This document shows, one piece after another, positions 5,261 through 18,351 of a stretch of 20,000 nucleotides of DNA (its first letter is position 1; each line of letters starts with the position of its first letter). Origin of the DNA: Pseudomonadota bacterium (lineage in GTDB: Bacteria > Bdellovibrionota_F > JAHFAK01 > JBDREC01). A program made the translations under genes and the position numbers. Under the pieces are notes generated by a model. That model was not told where the DNA came from, did no database searches, and worked only from the letters and a program-made list of their open reading frames with translations. The stretch lies in contig JBDREC010000039.1 of NCBI GenBank assembly GCA_043820105.1, positions 49,793 to 69,792 on the forward strand. Reading direction: 5' to 3'.

Positions 5261-5332
5261 AGTATTCAGTATACAGGATTCGGTATTCAGTTTTATTCTT
5301 TGCTGAATACTGGCTACCGAATACAGAATACA
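5261..5332. repeat. Palindromic heptamer element, copy 3
   Basis: AGTATTC AGTATAC AGGATTC GGTATTC - 16 nt - GAATACT GGCTACC GAATACA GAATACA. Confidence 0.88.
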
Positions 5333-7009: not shown

Positions 7010-7029
7010 CTATATTTTCTTTCTTTTCA

Positions 7030-7064
7030 TTAATTATTAATTGTTAATTGTTAACTATTAATTA
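7030..7064. repeat. Tandem heptamer array (TTAAYTR)x5
   Basis: TTAATTA TTAATTG TTAATTG TTAACTA TTAATTA. Confidence 0.75.
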
Positions 7065-7143
7065 TTTTTAAAACCTCTATTTAAGATTGCAGCGATTTTA
7101 ACAAGATATCCCTTTAAATAATCAATACACTTTATTTAAACAA

Positions 7144-7204: not shown

Positions 7205-7624
7205 TTGATAGAATTAATTCCAAGCGAAATTTTGATTCAGTTTATTTTGTATTTTATTGTATATATAGTTATATCCAGGCTTGTATTTAAGCCAATACTT
7301 AGGATCATTGACTCCAGAAGAAAGCTTATTGATGGAAACCTGGCTAAAGCAAAAGAACTTGAATCCAAAATTGATGAAAAAATTACTCTTTATGAAACTC
7401 AGATAACTAAAGCTCGAAAAGAAGCTGTATCAAGAAAATCTACTATTGCACAAGAAGGATACTCAATTCAATCTGAAAAAATAAATAAAGCAAAAGAGGA
7501 AGCAAAAAAAGAAATACTGGAATTTAACAATAAACTTGAACTTGAAATAAACAAGGCTTCAGAAGAAATTCAAAAAGAAGCCATTATGGTAGCTGAGATG
7601 CTGGAAAACAAGCTGAATGTTTGA
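7205..7624 (+). CDS. atpF2: ATP synthase F0 subunit b'
   Basis: N-terminal TM segment, FKPILRIIDSR, coiled coil; first gene of the atp cluster. Confidence 0.85.
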   Translation: MIELIPSEILIQFILYFIVYIVISRLVFKPILRIIDSRRKLIDGNLAKAKELESKIDEKITLYETQITKARKEAVSRKSTIAQEGYSIQSEKINKAKEEAKKEILEFNNKLELEINKASEEIQKEAIMVAEMLENKLNV

Positions 7625-7677
7625 GAATGTTTTTTTTTGGCATGCGCACGTTAAAGGTTTAAGGATGATGAGAAAAA

Positions 7678-8247
7678 ATGAAAAATAGTAGCTTAAAAAT
7701 TGTGATTTTATTTTTGCTAATCAATCCTATTCTTTTGTTTGCTTCAGTTAGCAATGAAGAACATGGATTTAATATTAAAGCATTTGTTTTTGCATTAATA
7801 AATTTCTCTATATTTGTTGGAGTAATTTTTTATTTTACTAAGAAAAAAATTATTCAAGGATTAAAAGATAGAAGCCTTAAAATCAAAAAAGAAATAGAAA
7901 CAGCTACAAAACTTAAACAAGAAGCATTGGAAAAATTTGAAGAATATGATTCCAAGCTCAGTTATATTGAGACTGAAATTAATAAAATAAGCCAAGATTC
8001 TGAAAATGATGGTCTGTTATTTAAAGAAAGGCTTGCTCAGGAAGGTGATAAAATAGCTAAAAAAATAATTTCAGATGTTGAAAGCTCCTGTGAAAACGAA
8101 TTAGCAAAAGCAAAGCTTGCCATTAAAGCTGAAATTTTAAGACTAGCAGAGGCTAGTGTAATTGATAAAATGACCAAAGATTCTAAGGCTTCAGATGAAG
8201 ACATAATGAATTTGCTAAATAAGGAGAAGCTCTTTGATAACAAATGA
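7678..8247 (+). CDS. atpF: ATP synthase F0 subunit b
   Basis: Signal-like extension, INFSIFVGVIFYF TM segment, coiled coil; precedes delta. Confidence 0.88.
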   Translation: MKNSSLKIVILFLLINPILLFASVSNEEHGFNIKAFVFALINFSIFVGVIFYFTKKKIIQGLKDRSLKIKKEIETATKLKQEALEKFEEYDSKLSYIETEINKISQDSENDGLLFKERLAQEGDKIAKKIISDVESSCENELAKAKLAIKAEILRLAEASVIDKMTKDSKASDEDIMNLLNKEKLFDNK

Positions 8248-8773
8248 TATTGCCAGACGATATGCAAAGTCTTTATTTTTAATAGGGCAAGAAGATCAAA
8301 CTTTTGATATGTTAAAAGAGCAACTTGTTGACCTTGAAGCAATATTTAATGATAATTCTGTTCTTTTGAAAACTCTTGATTCTCCGATTATCGAAAAAGA
8401 AGTTAAAAAAAATATTATTATAGATCTTTGTGATAGCATGAAGTTATCAGATGAAATGAAATCCCTTTTACTCTTACTTGAAAAAAACAAAAGAATAAGC
8501 TTTTTCTCTGATATTACACGGGGATTTTGCTCTATGATTGATGCCAAAGAAAATATTGAAAGAGTTACAATCTTATCAGCAAAAGAATTAAACCAAGCAT
8601 TTAAAAATAAAATAACTTCATATTTAGAAGAAAAATTAGGCAAAAAAGTTGTTAGCACCTTTTCAATAGATAAAAAATTAATTAGTGGTTTGAAAATTCA
8701 AATTGGGACAAAGGAGCTTGATACATCTACCTTTGCTCAATTAAATCTTTTAAGAAAAAAAGTTATAAAATAA
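8234..8773 (+). CDS. atpH: ATP synthase F1 subunit delta
   Basis: IARRYAKSLF, IDKKLISGLKIQIG..LD motifs; TTG start. Confidence 0.93.
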   Translation: MITNDIARRYAKSLFLIGQEDQTFDMLKEQLVDLEAIFNDNSVLLKTLDSPIIEKEVKKNIIIDLCDSMKLSDEMKSLLLLLEKNKRISFFSDITRGFCSMIDAKENIERVTILSAKELNQAFKNKITSYLEEKLGKKVVSTFSIDKKLISGLKIQIGTKELDTSTFAQLNLLRKKVIK

Positions 8774-8791
8774 TTGTAATGGAGCCAAAAT

Positions 8792-10300
8792 ATGCAGATT
8801 AAAGTGGATGAAATCTCTCAAATTATTAAGCAACAGATAAAAGATTTTGACAAGAAAGTTGTATTAAGCGAAACAGGTAGTATCGTAACAATTGGTGATG
8901 GTATTTGCAGAGTTTATGGTTTAGAAAATGCTATGTTTGGAGAACTTCTAGAATTTCCTGGGTCAACTTTTGGACTAGTTTTGAGCTTAGAAGAAAATAA
9001 TGTTGGTGTTGCTATTATGGGCGACTCAATTCATATCAAAGAAGGTGATACTGTAAAGAGAACAGGAAAGATTATCCAAGTTCCAGTAGGTGAAGAGCTT
9101 TGCGGCAGGGTTGTTAATGCTCTTGGTCAACCAATTGATGGTTTATCAGAACTTAAAACAGATAATTATCGTCGGGTTGAACTTAAAGCTCCTGGAATTG
9201 TTGACAGAAAATCGGTTCATGAGCCACTTCAAACTGGGTTAAAATCTGTTGATTCTATGATTCCAATTGGAAGAGGCCAAAGGGAATTGATTATTGGTGA
9301 TAGGCAAATCGGCAAAACCGCAATTGCTATTGATACAATTATTAACCAGAAAAACACTGATGTTTATTGTATATATGTTGCTATTGGCCAAAAACAATCA
9401 ACGGTAGCTAGTGTAGTTGACAAATTAAAATTCTACGGAGCAATGGAATACACCACAGTTGTTACCTCTAATGCCAACGATCCTGCTCCATTGCAGTTTA
9501 TCGCTCCGTATACCGGTGCTACAATGGGCGAATATTTTAGAGACAATGGAAAGCATGCTTTAGTTATCTATGATGATTTATCAAAGCACGCGGTTGCTTA
9601 TAGACAACTATCATTGCTTTTAAGAAGACCACCAGGGCGAGAAGCTTATCCTGGTGATGTTTTTTATCTGCACTCACGCTTATTAGAAAGAGCAGCAAAG
9701 ATGAGTGATGAAAGAGGAGGTGGATCCTTAACAGCTCTTCCTATTATTGAAACTCAAGCCGGTGATGTTACAGCATATATTCCAACTAACGTAATCTCTA
9801 TTACTGATGGTCAGATTTATCTTGAACCATCCCTTTTTTATTCCGGAATTAGGCCAGCAATTAATGCTGGAATTTCAGTATCACGTGTTGGGGGTAGCGC
9901 CCAGATTAAAGCCATGAAACAAGTTGCAGGATCTTTAAGGCTTGATTTGGCGCAGTTCAGAGAACAAGAAGCCTTTGCTCAATTCGGCAGTGACCTTGAT
10001 CCTGTTACTCAAAAACAACTCGAAAGAGGTCGAAGGCTTACTGAAATTTTAAAGCAAGGACAATATGTTCCATGTGCTGTTGAAAAACAAGTTGCTATAA
10101 TTTACGCAGCTATTAATGGATATACAGATAAGGTTGCTGTTGAGAAAATAAAAACTTATGAGCAAGATCTTTTAGAATTTCTTGAAAATAAGCATAAAAA
10201 TATTCTTGATGAGATTACAGAAAAGAAAGTCTTGGATGATGATCTAAAGAAAAAGCTTAATTCAGCTCTCGAGGAATTTTCAAAGAAATTTAATGGATAA
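8792..10300 (+). CDS. atpA: ATP synthase F1 subunit alpha
   Basis: [38 protein letters not shown]. Confidence 0.99.
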
Positions 10301-10314
10301 TAAAGAATAAAATT

Positions 10315-11181
10315 ATGGCGAATCTTAGAGATATAAAAAATAGAATTGTTAGCGTAAAAAAGAGTGAAAAAACTACTCGCGCCATGAAAATGGTATCAGC
10401 TGCAAAACTTCGAAAAACGCAGGAAAGGCTAGATAGATTTGCTCATTATGCTGATGCTTATGAAGGCAGCAAGAATAGTCTTATGAGAAGAATTGGCCTT
10501 GATTTCAGATCAATCTTTTTTGACAAAAGAAATGTGAAATCTGAGGCTGTCATTCTTTTAACCTCTGACAAAGGTTTATGCGGTAGCTATAATTCAAATT
10601 TAATTAAAAAATTTGATGACTATATTTCTTCTAATCATGCTGTTGCAAAAAGATTGATTTATACAATAGGAACAAAGGGTTTTGATTTCTTTAAAAAAAG
10701 ATTAGAAATTAATGAAAATTATGAAAAAGCTTCTTTTTCAAGCATCCCAGAGATTCTAAAATTATCAAATAAATTAAAAGACTTGTTTTTAAGTAAGGAA
10801 ATTGATCAGGTTGTTTTTATTTTCAATAACCTTATTTCAAAATCCCGCTCAGAAATAGCCTTAAAAACTCTTTTACCTGTTATTATAGAAGAAGATGAAA
10901 CAAAAGATACAGCCAAATTTGCTGTGGATTATATTTACGAGCCTTCAAAGGCTGAATTAGTAGATAATTATTTTTCAAAATATGTTGATGTGCAATTTGA
11001 AAGATTTATTTATGCATCAATGGCTTCAGAGAATTTAGCAAGAATGACCGCGATGTCCATTGCATCTAAGAATTGCGAAGAATTGATTGGCGCATTAACA
11101 TTACAATATAATAAAGCAAGACAAGCTTCCATTACAAAAGAACTTCTGGAAATTATCGGAAGTGCTGAGGCGATGAGGTGA
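10315..11181 (+). CDS. atpG: ATP synthase F1 subunit gamma
   Basis: TRAMKMVSAAK, TSDKGLCG, YNKARQASITKELLEII. Confidence 0.98.
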   Translation: MANLRDIKNRIVSVKKSEKTTRAMKMVSAAKLRKTQERLDRFAHYADAYEGSKNSLMRRIGLDFRSIFFDKRNVKSEAVILLTSDKGLCGSYNSNLIKKFDDYISSNHAVAKRLIYTIGTKGFDFFKKRLEINENYEKASFSSIPEILKLSNKLKDLFLSKEIDQVVFIFNNLISKSRSEIALKTLLPVIIEEDETKDTAKFAVDYIYEPSKAELVDNYFSKYVDVQFERFIYASMASENLARMTAMSIASKNCEELIGALTLQYNKARQASITKELLEIIGSAEAMR

Positions 11182-11193
11182 GGAGTGGTTTTT

Positions 11194-11266
11194 GGTATTC
11201 AGTATTTAGTATTCGGTATTCAGTTTTTATAACTCACTGAATACTAAATACAGAATACTGCATACA
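11194..11266. repeat. Palindromic heptamer element, copy 4
   Basis: GGTATTC AGTATTT AGTATTC GGTATTC - 17 nt - GAATACT AAATACA GAATACT GCATACA, between atpG and atpD. Confidence 0.9.
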
Positions 11267-11294
11267 AATTTAAGAATAATTTTGTTTTAATTAA

Positions 11295-12713
<1,419 letters not shown>

Positions 12714-12716
12714 ACC

Positions 12717-13109
12717 ATGCTTTTAAAAATTGTAACTTCTGAAAAACTTATATTTGAAGGTGAGGTAAAAGAGCTTTCAATATCAACTGACCTAGGGCAA
12801 GTTACTATCTTAAAAGACCACTTACCACTTTTTGCTAAACTAAAACCATCAATTCTATCTTTTGTTGAGCATAATAAAACTTCTAAAATTGTTGTAAACA
12901 CTGGATTTCTTGAGATGGAAAATAACCAGATAAATATTATGACTTCACAAGTAGTTTCAGAAGAAGACGAAATCGATTCAGCTAGCAATCAAAATGAACT
13001 TAAAAATATTTATAATACGCTTGGTAATGAAGGATATTCCAATGATAATATTGAGGAGCTGCTTGCGTTGAAAGATTATTTGGAAGCTATAATTGAATTG
13101 AAGAGTTAA
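12717..13109 (+). CDS. atpC: ATP synthase F1 subunit epsilon
   Basis: LKIVTSE, GQVTILKDH, GFLEM; follows atpD. Confidence 0.92.
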   Translation: MLLKIVTSEKLIFEGEVKELSISTDLGQVTILKDHLPLFAKLKPSILSFVEHNKTSKIVVNTGFLEMENNQINIMTSQVVSEEDEIDSASNQNELKNIYNTLGNEGYSNDNIEELLALKDYLEAIIELKS

Positions 13110-15810: not shown

Positions 15811-15993
15811 TCGAAAAGAAAATGTATGCCCTGTTAATGTGCCATGGGACGACAGAACAAAAAGGAACATGCGCTTTTTTCAGTTTTCAGATAATAGAAT
15901 CTTCTTATTTTAATACGCTATTGAAAATTTTGGATCATCTCCAATCTGAGTACCCACAAAGAATAATTTTTCTATAAACATAACACACTATTA

Positions 15994-16050
15994 GATTAGG
16001 ATTAGGATTAAGTTTAGGATTAAGATTAAGATTAAGATTAAGATGATTAG
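15994..16050. repeat. Tandem hexamer array (GATTAR)n, left flank of the four-helix-bundle cassette
   Basis: GATTAG GATTAG GATTAA GTTTAG GATTAA GATTAA GATTAA GATTAA GAT GATTAG. Confidence 0.92.
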
Positions 16051-16385
16051 CTCATTTTATAGAGCATTCTGACGATTTGTAGGAGTTGATCTTTGAAGTA
16101 GGAATGTAGATCTTTAGAAATGAGATTAAAAGAAAAGAGAAGATCAAATACTGCTGAGCTTTCTGATGCTGAGCCAATTGCAATTTCAAAAAATCGTTTT
16201 CGTTCAGTTGAGGACTTTCGATAGACTCCTTCTGCAATATTTAGCACGATACTCGCGAGTGCTCTTTTCAACTGATCATTGAGGTAAGCATAGCCTTTTG
16301 GCATTTTTTTTGCTAAAGCCCGATTCGCTTCTTTTGATACAAATAAACTCATTTGATAACACTTAAGTTTTTCATGAATTAGCAT
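16047..16385 (-). CDS. Four helix bundle protein (23S rRNA IVP / bAvd-like family)
   Basis: HEKL.CYQ, L.DQLKRA..SIVLNIAEG, RFFEIAIGSASE signature; SD AGGAGG. Confidence 0.92.
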   Translation of the reverse strand: MLIHEKLKCYQMSLFVSKEANRALAKKMPKGYAYLNDQLKRALASIVLNIAEGVYRKSSTERKRFFEIAIGSASESSAVFDLLFSFNLISKDLHSYFKDQLLQIVRMLYKMS

Positions 16386-16391
16386 AATTAG

Positions 16392-16451
16392 TGACCTCCT
16401 AAATTAAATTGTTCTTTCATATGTGCAAGAACAATTTAATTTAGGAGGTCA
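16392..16451. repeat. Perfect 25-bp inverted repeat (10-nt loop) containing both SD sequences
   Basis: TGACCTCCTAAATTAAATTGTTCTT-tcatatgtgc-AAGAACAATTTAATTTAGGAGGTCA. Confidence 0.97.
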
Positions 16452-16453
16452 AT

Positions 16454-16804
16454 ATGTATTACTTTAGTCATGAAAAACTTAATTGTTATCAGGAGCTTAT
16501 CGCGACATAAAAAGAAGCAATCGGGCTGGCAAAAAATATGCCAAAAGGCTATGCTTACCTCGCAGACCAACTGAAAAGAGCAGCGGTTTCATCCGTTTGT
16601 AATCTAGCTGAAGGCAATAGTAAAACAAGTCTAAAAGACAGAAGACGCTTCTTTGACATCTCACTTGGCTCAATAGCTGAAATCTGCGCCTGTCTTGACC
16701 TTCTTGACTCTTTAGATCTTGACTCTTTTTCTTCTTCTTCTTTAATCTTATCTCTAAAAAAACGATACCAATCTATCTATTCCATGATCTTCAAATTGAA
16801 ATAA
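16454..16804 (+). pseudogene. Four helix bundle protein paralogue with in-frame stop
   Basis: ATG 16454 follows AGGAGG: MYYFSHEKLNCYQELIAT*KEAIGLAKNMPKGYAYLADQLKRAAVSSVCNLAEG... The TAA at 16508-16510 aligns to TCA (Ser) in the paralogue. Confidence 0.85.
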
Positions 16805-16828
16805 ATATTTCTATATATAAAATCAATG

Positions 16829-16876
16829 GATTAAGCTTAGGATTATGATTAAGATTAAAATGAGGCTTTAGATTAT
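16829..16876. repeat. Degenerate hexamer array (GATTAR)n, right flank of the cassette
   Basis: GATTAA GCTTAG GATTAT GATTAA GATTAA AATGAG GCTTTA GATTAT; same orientation as the left array. Confidence 0.8.
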
Positions 16877-18351
16877 TCAGTTCCTTCTTTATCCAAGATA
16901 CCTCTTACCGTAACAGGTGTATATGAAGATGAATCTTCAGATCCATTACCTAATTGGCCATATTCATTGCTGCCCCAGCATTTTACTGCACCGTCTCCAT
17001 TGAGAACACAAGTGGCATATCCACCGGCTGAGATACTAACTGCCTTTTCCATTGTTGCCATTGTATAGGGAGAAGATGTCTCATCGGCTGCTTCATAGCC
17101 AAGTTGTCCATGGCTATTATAACCCCAACATTGTATATTCTTATCTGAATCGAGTGCACATGAATGAGCGCTACCTGAGGCAATCATTACAATATTCTCA
17201 ACACCATCTACAGAAGCAAAATCTTCACTGAAACTAGCTTCAGTATTTCCTAATTCCCCATGTTTATTATTACCCCAGCATACTACAGAAGAATCACGGT
17301 TTAATATTCCACATGTATGTTGTCCATGGGTTGAAATGTCTGAAAATATTAAATTTGATTTTGGGCTTGCAGGAACTAGAATGGAGTTATCACTTGGATC
17401 ATCGTCAAGGTTATCTTCTCTTCCACATTGACCATATCTATTGTCTCCCCAGCACTTTAGCTTTCCATTTTCAAGCAATGCACAGCTATGATAACTGCTT
17501 GAAAAAATAAGGCTTGCATTGGACAACCTATCAACAGGTAGTGGAATAGTAGAATAAGGAATAGATGAATCATTTATACCGAGCTCACCATGGTCATTGT
17601 ATCCCCAGCATGAAGCATCTCCATCAGATAAAACAGCACAAGTAAAATAGTTCCCGGCTGAAACTGAAAGGGCGGAAGTTATTGATAAAACTTCAACTGG
17701 CGTCGAGCTATTTGTTTTTGTTCCATCACCTAGCTGGCCATAATTATTGTGTCCCCAGCAATAGACTTTTCCTGAATCAATAACAGCGCAAGTATGAGTA
17801 GAACCCGCCGAAATTTGAGTAATATTCTCGAGATCACTGCTTTCAATAGCAGTATTTTCATAATCCTTATCACTACCTCTTCCTAATTGACCGTATTGAT
17901 TTCTTCCCCAACATTTTACTTTTCCTGTTTTTAAAAGCACGCAATTGTGGGCTGATCCACTTACTAGCATTGAAATTGGATTTTCTTCTTCAACAGTTCC
18001 ATCACCATCAGCTTCGCCATCACCGTCTCCATCGCCATCACCATCGCCATCACCGTCTCCATCGCCATCACCGTCTCCATCACCGTCGCCATCGCCATCG
18101 CCGTCTCCATCACCATCGCCGTCTCCATCACCGTCGCCATCGCCATCGCCGTCTCCATCGCCATCACCTTTAACAGCATCATTGCTCTCAACAAGGTCTA
18201 TTGTTTCAGTACTAATATTCTGACTTGAAGGGGTGTCTGCTGTTAATAACACTTGCTCTGCAAGTTCTTCTTCATTTCCTGAAGAGCAGGAAAGAGCTAT
18301 TGTCAATATTGAAATTAATAAAATTAAAATTCCTAAAAAATTTACTTTCAT
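16873..18351 (-). CDS. RCC1/BLIP-II-like beta-propeller lipoprotein with poly-GD linker
   Basis: Signal peptide ending ALS-C; (GD)25 linker; seven CWG.N..G(Q/E) repeats; SD AAGGAGG. Confidence 0.9.
18016..18168 (-). repeat. Coding hexamer repeat (GGNGAY)25 encoding (GD)25
   Basis: 150 nt of Gly-Asp codon pairs with synonymous variation. Confidence 0.95.

Follow-up and report, generated by a model that had tools for sequence, protein, structure and literature searches.

A decaying head-to-head pair of four-helix-bundle genes as a candidate copy of a mirror-symmetric, dispersed cassette without an enzyme of its own

The described elements closest to the gene pair analysed here are the intervening sequences (IVSs) of ribosomal RNA (rRNA), known from Leptospira, Coxiella, Xanthomonas and others. 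According to the parts of PMC4990558 that deal with them, complementary repeats at the ends of these elements are cut by RNase III, some of the elements carry an S23p open reading frame (ORF) of family PF05635 between the repeats, no recombinase is encoded, and their distribution is sporadic and their mode of spread unknown. In the Coxiella IVS, three to four short tandem heptamers stand at the 5' end of the element, before the S23p ORF, with an RNase III site at the first repeat, and the family structure 2GSC is a homopentameric ring (same parts of PMC4990558). A family relationship between PF05635 and Avd, the accessory protein of diversity-generating retroelements (DGRs), is stated in a section of PMC10053308, and Avd is described as a basic pentamer contacting structured RNA in the corresponding part of bioRxiv 10.1101/2023.10.23.563531. 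Here we analyse two four-helix-bundle genes, A and B, in a 20,000-nt stretch of a Pseudomonadota genome placed in Bdellovibrionota_F (assembly GCA_043820105.1, contig JBDREC010000039.1, positions 49,793 to 69,792), hereafter the window. With moderate confidence, we read the feature formed by this pair as one copy, now decaying, of an IVS-like cassette of two genes that is compact (about 0.85 kb) and mirror-symmetric, is dispersed within genomes and encodes no enzyme. On this reading, the cassette is related to those rRNA IVSs in which inverted repeats enclose a single four-helix-bundle ORF, but it holds two genes; like them, it lacks a recombinase.

Genes A and B lie head to head with 68 bp between their start codons (16386-16453), and their proteins are 50% identical, in agreement with the original prediction, made from the letters of the window, of divergent paralogues about half identical and 68 bp apart. 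Both belong to PF05635/TIGR02436. Gene A scores well above the curated cut-offs of the two profiles (PF05635: E 3.7e-20, 72.6 bits, cut-off 33.8; TIGR02436: E 5.3e-18, 65.2 bits, cut-off 24), and its product is basic, with an isoelectric point (pI) of 9.7 and a net charge of +8. Gene B carries a single TAA inside its profile match region, at a codon where gene A has TCA, and since this stop is in frame the gene is broken. A remainder of 88 aa could be translated from an ATG at 16538, and this remainder, too, lies above both cut-offs (PF05635: E 1.9e-13, 51 bits; TIGR02436: 53.2 bits). Used as a query in genome contigs, it gave 209 pattern matches, none of which was confirmed. The same stop is present in a contig from a public sequencing run, possibly of the source sample, that is identical to the window over 16422-16617. 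An AlphaFold2 model of gene A, built from an alignment of 29 sequences, has four long helices and a mean confidence (pLDDT) of 95.5; it superimposes on 2GSC with a template-modelling (TM) score of 0.87-0.90 and a root-mean-square deviation of 1.6 Å, and on 2RLD with a TM score of about 0.8, placing the protein in the expected fold. 2GSC was also matched at the sequence level by phmmer (E 8.1e-6).

The space between the genes is largely filled by a perfect palindrome (Table 1), whose arms extend to 36 nt at 89% identity by an inverted-repeat tool. Each arm carries a Shine-Dalgarno-like AGGAGG a few bases before the start codon of one gene. Folded as RNA, the palindrome reaches -37.8 kcal/mol (z -9.05), and none of 200 shuffled sequences did as well; at gathering score, Rfam has no family for the hairpin or the arrays and recognized only tRNAs, near other four-helix-bundle genes. 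Hexamer arrays bracket the pair. Read in the sense of gene A, the left one is (TTAATC)n and begins at A's stop codon, and the right one can also be parsed as 16829-16858, with period 6 and 5.0 copies. The perfect 25-bp inverted repeat and the bracketing (GATTAR)n arrays named in the original prediction are thus both in place, as is the lack of a transposase, integrase or reverse transcriptase (RT), none of which was found when the 20 ORFs of the window were scanned against Pfam.

Table 1. Features of the gene pair and of the associated miniature inverted-repeat transposable element (MITE) sequence; positions are those of the window.
Feature	Positions	Strand	Remarks
Left terminal inverted repeat GGATCATCTCCAATCTGAGTACCC	15932..15955	+	Common to a MITE family of this genome
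Subterminal spacer of MITE-type element	15956..15992	+	MITE positions 1-61 match window 15932-15992
Left hexamer array, AGATTA x 8.7	15993..16044	+	Period 6, score 76; tandem-repeat finder
Gene A, intact, A-type four-helix bundle (PF05635/TIGR02436), 112 aa	16047..16385	-	Profile matches
Inverted self-similarity within the pair (79.5%, about 330 nt)	16260..16582	.	24 nt at 96% and 54 nt at 87% within the 5' coding parts
Central palindrome, perfect 25-bp arms	16392..16451	.	Arms 16392-16416 and 16427-16451; 10-nt loop 16417-16426
Gene B, B-type four-helix bundle, broken	16454..16804	+	In-frame TAA at codon 19 (16508-16510)
Last 33 nt of B, downstream spacer and array	16772..16857	+	MITE interior, positions 61-146
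Right hexamer array, GATTAA type, 4.0 copies	16828..16875	+	Period 12, score 47; tandem-repeat finder

The same architecture recurs in other genomes, among them metagenome-assembled genomes (MAGs). We considered the best 80 loci with A homologues and 80 B-type loci returned by a search with a B-type protein alignment. Among the former, ranks 1, 2 and 4 are head-to-head pairs; palindromes with GGAGG at their outer ends are found in two of these, and one of the pairs, from a MAG labelled Myxococcales, has (TAATCT)n at the A stop although the identity of the proteins is only 50%. Among the B-type loci, 42 of 80 are head-to-head pairs, and in most of these 72-88 bp separate the start codons; in 37 of the 42, an A-type gene faces a B-type gene. 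A palindrome is present in 39 of the 42 pairs, its arms measuring 12-35 bp (at least 17 bp in 36 pairs; median 23), compared to a median arm of 6 in control windows, of which 6 of 126 reach 12. All 39 arm sequences are distinct, while 38 of the 39 loops measure 10-14 nt (the remaining one 25 nt), and the mirror identity of the pairs is 0.96 over the first 20 nt, falling to 0.43. A count of divergent pairs with a central inverted repeat had been proposed in the original prediction. In two loci of one MAG, L183 and L184, the 11-nt loops are exact reverse complements of each other and the arms differ.

Downstream of A-type genes, 41 regions hold 58 copies of TAATC, versus 8 in 210 control windows; downstream of B-type genes, 35 regions hold 78 copies of ATCT, versus 88 in 210 controls. 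GATTA is absent from these 35 B-type regions, and six-base periodicity is raised downstream of both gene types. The canonical cassette, as it emerges from these loci, encodes two basic paralogous PF05635 proteins, A-type and B-type (median pI 9.7 and 10.0), head to head around a hairpin palindrome with arms of about 23 bp and a loop of about 12 nt. The loop holds a TCA-N6-YGG-like motif in either orientation, with 18 loops of the 39 beginning TCA/TCG-like and 19 ending TGA/CGA-like, and short NNNATC-type hexamer arrays stand at or just after each stop codon. Such cassettes are dispersed in several to many copies per genome, and in the one MAG tested (CAYWXY) homology ends at the cassette: its 11 copies share only about 0.8-0.87 kb, with mirror-inverted arrays, unrelated flanks and no conserved neighbour gene among them. 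In three multicopy MAGs the copies have diverged, and every A or B ORF examined there is intact; median dN/dS values of 0.05-0.14 indicate purifying selection on both proteins. The recurrence of one architecture in many copies per genome bears out the claim that the pair is a compact, repeat-associated cassette and not a chance duplication.

Flanking repeats extend to the wider four-helix-bundle family. The comparison covered 73 ORFs of this family from the 80 A-homologue loci. Of these, 48 lie within 120 bp of an array, compared to 90 of 263 control ORFs (Fisher 1.9e-6), and 17 have arrays on both sides, compared to 8 of 263 (Fisher 2.7e-7); the array test is conservative, as some control ORFs are neighbours of the tested genes and have an intergenic region in common with them. 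Mutually complementary flanks (score at least 30) surround 24 of the 73 ORFs and 1 of 141 non-adjacent controls (Fisher 6e-12). The predicted enrichment of arrays around family members therefore holds in other genomes; in the present one, arrays are generic. In that single-gene relatives are enclosed by inverted arrays (24 of 73), these loci resemble the rRNA IVSs. None of the 20 loci with the best complementary flanks, however, lies in an rRNA gene by Rfam, and no rRNA family reached gathering score in the 4-kb locus around the window pair (L081). Further unlike an IVS, the window pair consists of two paralogous genes with a central hairpin. The gene upstream points the same way in 48 of 60 four-helix-bundle cases versus 106 of 176 control adjacencies, and the gene downstream does so in 24 of 57 cases. 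Two single four-helix-bundle genes, L021 from a Bdellovibrionota-labelled and L050 from a Proteobacteria-labelled MAG, have nearly the same ACGTGA/ACGTGC-type arrays, both ending in ACGTACCCGA.

The window copy itself is decaying: A is intact, B has suffered a nonsense mutation and the right end is truncated. By itself it is a modest finding, a truncated element with one gene intact and the other a pseudogene. In the assembly that contains it (G000; 3.81 Mb, 113 contigs, 32% G+C, 92.9% complete), PF05635 matches 16 places, 11 of them above cut-off. A second full head-to-head pair, at C68, has about 75% DNA identity to the window pair; both of its genes are damaged, A by a TAG and B by an in-frame deletion of about 23 residues. 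Its palindrome is perfect over 25 bp, all five arm differences from the window palindrome being compensated, and its loop matches that of the window at 7 of 10 positions as reverse complement versus 4 of 10 directly. C83 holds an intact A with 98% protein identity to window A (dN 0.008, dS 0.153, dN/dS 0.05) beside a cassette remnant, and rearranged remnants occur at C19, C75 and C81. Every A-type copy in this genome has (TTAATC)n at its stop codon, the array following A at C83, C19 and C68. On the right of the window pair, homology of the flank to the MITE tail ends near 16870, at the end of an RCC1-repeat gene (16873-18351, minus strand). A joint in a public-run contig ('goes back 794') and loose contig ends were considered as signs of excision or chimerism and discarded, as they match copies C19 and C83 instead.

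Further family members of this genome are worth recording. At C75:24095-24476, the antisense 3' half of an A-type gene is fused, at a shared short sequence, to a B-type gene that lacks its N-terminus, resembling a deletion of both 5' parts and the palindrome. Genes at C77:11938, C36:4934 and C1:645 form a separate, weakly matching PF05635 subfamily with open frames of 155-178 aa and a common N-terminal extension; the tandem-repeat finder detected no flanking array at C77 and C36, and a period-12 array about 160 bp upstream at C1. The four-helix-bundle gene at C43:9396-9692 (L264) adjoins a tRNA gene (Rfam, L264 207-290) and is followed by three copies of a repeat of about 60 bp built from AAATTAC heptamers, and the gene at C24:37720-38025 apparently adjoins a tRNA gene as well, judged by eye from the sequence.

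Several observations weigh against the cassette reading. The window arrays are direct repeats on the plus strand, in contrast to the mirror-inverted arrays of canonical cassettes elsewhere, so that no enclosing stem can form in this copy, and the complementary terminal repeats that enclose the ORF of an IVS in a stem are missing here. In addition, the right array is oriented as an A-type 3' array, which is wrong for B; given this orientation and the order at C83 and C19 (B 3' remnant, array, then leftward A), it probably belonged to a lost next cassette unit. A promoter scan of 15850-16950 found nothing in the 68-bp spacer and one promoter-like site, at 16796-16823, compared to a mean of 3.5 in shuffled sequences; no terminator was found in the same interval, and no public RNA run was listed with the window stretch. 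No empty site came to light: the nearest genomes compared are of the same order only, cassette DNA matches in them are limited to two 58-nt stretches in one genome (G020), and in metagenome contigs no relative of the neighbouring RCC1 gene exceeds 42% identity. The two sets of 80 loci contain several from the same MAGs, which are thus not independent, and gene calls in them are crude. No general terminal inverted repeat surrounds the 37 pairs examined, 0 scoring at least 30 versus 2 of 148 controls. The mismatches in flanking stems comprise 18 G-U, 25 A-C and 105 others, with no excess of G-U over A-C, and hairpin and stems may act as RNA or as DNA. Template switching in palindromes could keep arms perfect and flip loops without selection, and the perfection of the palindrome may reflect either this or selection. 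The Coxiella homologue had no effect on growth in E. coli and its ORF is apparently decaying, as far as PMC4990558 describes it in part. Finally, what we propose for the spread and function of the cassette is inferred throughout.

Short arrays are, moreover, a general trait of this genome: 645 of its 1796 intergenic regions (36%, crudely called) hold one. The tandem-repeat finder returned 35 rows for the window and 1701 merged arrays genome-wide, the commonest units being AAGTGGT (148), AATAATT (94) and AAAATTC (63); 921 arrays have periods of 6-8, and these form 68 inverted doublets with gaps of up to 80 bp. Wider inverted doublets enclose two four-helix-bundle genes (C30, C88). Other doublets, considered as holders of hidden four-helix-bundle cargo, had to be rejected as such, for they enclose ORFs that by eye, from their translations, look like thioredoxin (trxA), IF-1 (infA), RNA polymerase omega (rpoZ) and Rnf proteins. 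Of 49 GATTAR-like arrays, 15 adjoin cassette or MITE sequence and 34 do not. With arrays around ordinary genes and in intergenic regions at large, array bracketing is not special within this genome.

The frequency of arrays, also around housekeeping-looking genes, would suit two small, paralogous regulators of the ordinary chromosomal kind, with the palindrome as their operator, generic arrays and copies made by ordinary duplication, as would purifying selection on both proteins elsewhere and the lack of general terminal repeats and of a recombinase in the window or next to copies. We nevertheless regard such a pair as unlikely, because the TAATC-type arrays after A-type genes recur in genomes that are unrelated and differ in base composition, because arrays and inverted flanks are enriched relative to control ORFs of the same loci, and because at least 11 copies in one MAG have nothing but the 0.8-0.87-kb unit in common. 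The existence of a cassette-derived MITE and of deletion derivatives, described below, is a further argument against mere duplication of regulators.

Joined directly to each other, window positions 15932-15992 and 16772-16857 correspond to the initial 146 nt of a MITE of 243 bp, whose complete copies carry a 24-bp terminal inverted repeat at either end; in the window, the left terminal repeat lies 37 bp from the left array. The repeat has 45 matches in the genome at up to 5 mismatches, often at contig ends, of which only one is on the contig of the window (C39), and that contig holds no right terminal repeat for the window copy. Identity to the reference is 97.5-100% for at least seven full or partial MITE copies, and contigs break at copies. 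Flanking 8-bp AT-rich duplications are TTAATTAT at C9 and TAAAATAT at C90 (C90:46607), with a match of 7/8 at C90:37121, three among about five readable copies; multiple copies and target-site duplications are thus found for the family, in its complete members. Further elements combine the same terminal repeats with different interiors. One of them encloses a 75-aa remnant that matches, in the right order, HTH_Tnp_ISL3 (E 2.2e-4, 21.1 bits, below the cut-off of 27.4) and Zn_ribbon_ISL3 (E 0.01, 16.7 bits, below the cut-off of 25.5). Ends of the ISL3 family start with GG and make 8-bp duplications, and the present repeats, which start with GG, resemble ISL3-derived MITEs also in their many near-identical copies without a transposase inside. 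As the MITE interior consists of the 3' end of B and the array within ISL3-like repeats, a cassette-bearing element with ISL3-like ends must have existed in this genome; the MITE is an internal-deletion derivative of that element and has multiplied recently.

This raises the possibility that the window copy is a passenger of a non-autonomous ISL3-type transposon, with an ISL3 transposase acting on the 24-bp repeats doing all the moving and arrays and palindrome taking no part. The proximity of repeat and array, the duplications, the near-identical copies and the ISL3-like remnant all speak for it. However, no DDE_Tnp_ISL3 domain (PF01610) was found in the assembly, which is about 93% complete, the remnant stays below the Pfam cut-offs, and the window copy has one repeat only. 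Cassettes in other genomes are without these repeats, and no general terminal repeat was found around 37 pairs. A passenger would account for spread in this genome only and not for the conserved cassette, and we give this explanation a low probability. In a second genome (G041), recent copies, 85-91% identical in DNA across 0.9-1.0 kb, are terminated by an imperfect inverted repeat of 25 bp (18/25, by eye) outside the arrays; one copy has CTTTATA on both sides, a flanking duplication of 7-8 bp, and there are two deletion derivatives. In the present genome, variants of the MITE terminal repeats also bound a 1.1-kb element (L093, C65:48000-52000, at about 827-1972) in which a C-terminal piece of a transposase of the IS110 family remains (Transposase_20, E 2.7e-29).

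Other repeat systems offer partial parallels. Repetitive extragenic palindromic (REP) sequences and REPINs, which are mobilised by RAYT transposases, are likewise dispersed intergenic hairpin repeats, and this genome has 13 Y1_Tnp matches (IS200-like/RAYT-type) on C19, C103, C59, C62, C92, C20, C10, C39, C108, C74, C112 and C76, many of them with 230-330-aa open frames at the ends of contigs; the C39 match, at 35572-35901, is outside the window. As mobilisers these enzymes were rejected: a single one, at C108:41696, lies close to a MITE-type repeat (about 190 bp) and is broken by a TAG, and no regular association of Y1 genes with cassette or arrays emerged. Unlike in REP elements, the hairpin of the cassette is central and not terminal. 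By way of analogy only, the small, basic, oligomeric omega and ParR proteins of plasmids bind cooperatively to arrays of 6-7-bp iterons, direct or inverted, beside their genes. They differ from gene A in their unrelated fold, and no partition ATPase goes with the pair; a tblastn search with gene A gave no match at E 1e-5 in 72,556 plasmid records, nor in phages.

Two small genes in a self-contained unit, present in many diverged copies each with its own palindrome sequence and with both genes under purifying selection, could also be taken for a toxin-antitoxin-like or defence addiction module that regulates itself at a palindromic operator, the more so as PF05635 scores high for association with immune genes and CRISPR in two surveys (portions of PMC10053308 and PMC10910872). 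We consider this improbable. PADLOC assigned none of four proteins (window A and B and the L004 pair) to a known defence family, the proteins are paralogues of one fold without a toxin-type domain, and the genes are divergent instead of forming an operon. In this genome, A persists intact and every B copy is broken, and the Coxiella homologue was not toxic in E. coli, according to the part of PMC4990558 on this protein.

The family is related to Avd, and its basic charge and four-helix-bundle fold are shared by that protein, an oligomeric barrel on structured RNA as far as the partial description goes; the model of gene A reaches TM scores of 0.77 with 4DWL and 0.72-0.75 with chains of DGR ribonucleoproteins. 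Model and literature are in this respect consistent with the earlier statement that the family has an Avd-like fold and no defined function. An Avd-type accessory gene of a DGR or of another RT-dependent element is nonetheless very improbable, given a sequence identity of 8% to Avd, the arrangement as head-to-head paralogues with their own cis elements, and the absence of RVT_1 matches from both the window ORFs and the 92.9%-complete assembly with its 16 PF05635 matches. For the suggested enzyme in trans, too, no candidate was found: searches of the assembly gave neither an RT nor an ISL3 DDE domain, and the 11 CAYWXY copies compared share no conserved neighbour gene. Least credible of all is an assembly artefact, in which the head-to-head arrangement would be a chimera formed at a repeat: the assembly has 113 contigs, cassette-related repeats break contigs, and three groundwater-metagenome runs of one study yielded only low-depth contig pieces, none spanning the whole pair or the palindrome centre and one ending at 16422, but these pieces are identical to the window over 16015-16141 and 16422-16617, the architecture recurs in 42 loci of other assemblies, and the C68 pair with its covarying palindrome argues against the chimera that the original prediction had named as its own refutation.

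The surroundings of the pair are mostly core genes (leuCD-type, gmk, yicC and the ATP synthase operon), followed by MORN- and RCC1-repeat genes. The genes for the soluble part and stalk of ATP synthase form one run (7205-13109) with two b-type subunits, delta, alpha, gamma, beta and epsilon; identity of the beta subunit to proteins from delta-proteobacterial-type MAGs does not exceed 79%. Within the minus-strand RCC1-repeat gene lies a long in-frame tandem repeat at 17999-18168, with periods of 12, 18 and 48 and a score of up to 263. Intergenic heptamer or octamer arrays lie at 483-590, 725-778, 1896-1943, 2481-2549, 5261-5291, 7029-7066 and 11195-11224, the last a GTATTCA array between the ATP synthase gamma and beta genes. 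They are often inverted doublets able to form hairpins, for example GTATTCA followed by a TGAATAC-type unit.

Returning to the cassette as the favoured reading, one can ask how such an element could operate with two small proteins and a few short repeats. Avd-like oligomers may bind the cassette's own hairpin, with both of its ribosome-binding sites, and the terminal arrays, and such binding could control the expression of the cassette proteins and mark the ends of the unit. In read-through transcripts of a canonical copy, the inverted arrays would pair and be cut by RNase III, as in rRNA IVSs, and removal of the insert from transcripts in this manner would leave the insertion with little harm. 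Spread might then rely on functions of the host or on a transposase acting in trans. In the present genome, internal deletion in a cassette-bearing element with ISL3-like ends gave rise to the 243-bp MITE. More speculatively, and at a strength we would call no better than tentative, PF05635 proteins might be the repeat-reading component of widespread enzyme-less mobile cassettes, their Avd-like rings binding the element's own arrays and hairpin and recruiting RNase III, template switching or a trans-acting transposase, so that the element is rendered harmless and copied into hairpin-type sites. The rRNA IVS would then be a special case residing in rRNA helices, and the Avd of DGRs a domesticated relative.

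In searches of the open-access literature, we found no paper on the pair, the hairpin or a general association with arrays; the heptamers of the Coxiella IVS are the only related report there. The S23p/IVS family is very common, its structures have been solved and it is related to Avd, while its function and the origin and spread of IVSs have been unresolved since about 1990, by the account given in parts of PMC4990558. Three regularities make this question testable: the A/B pair, the varying stem with a constant loop length, and the arrays tied to stop codons together with the inverted arrays around single-gene relatives outside rRNA. These regularities define candidate nucleic-acid ligands, RNase III sites and unit boundaries for the family.

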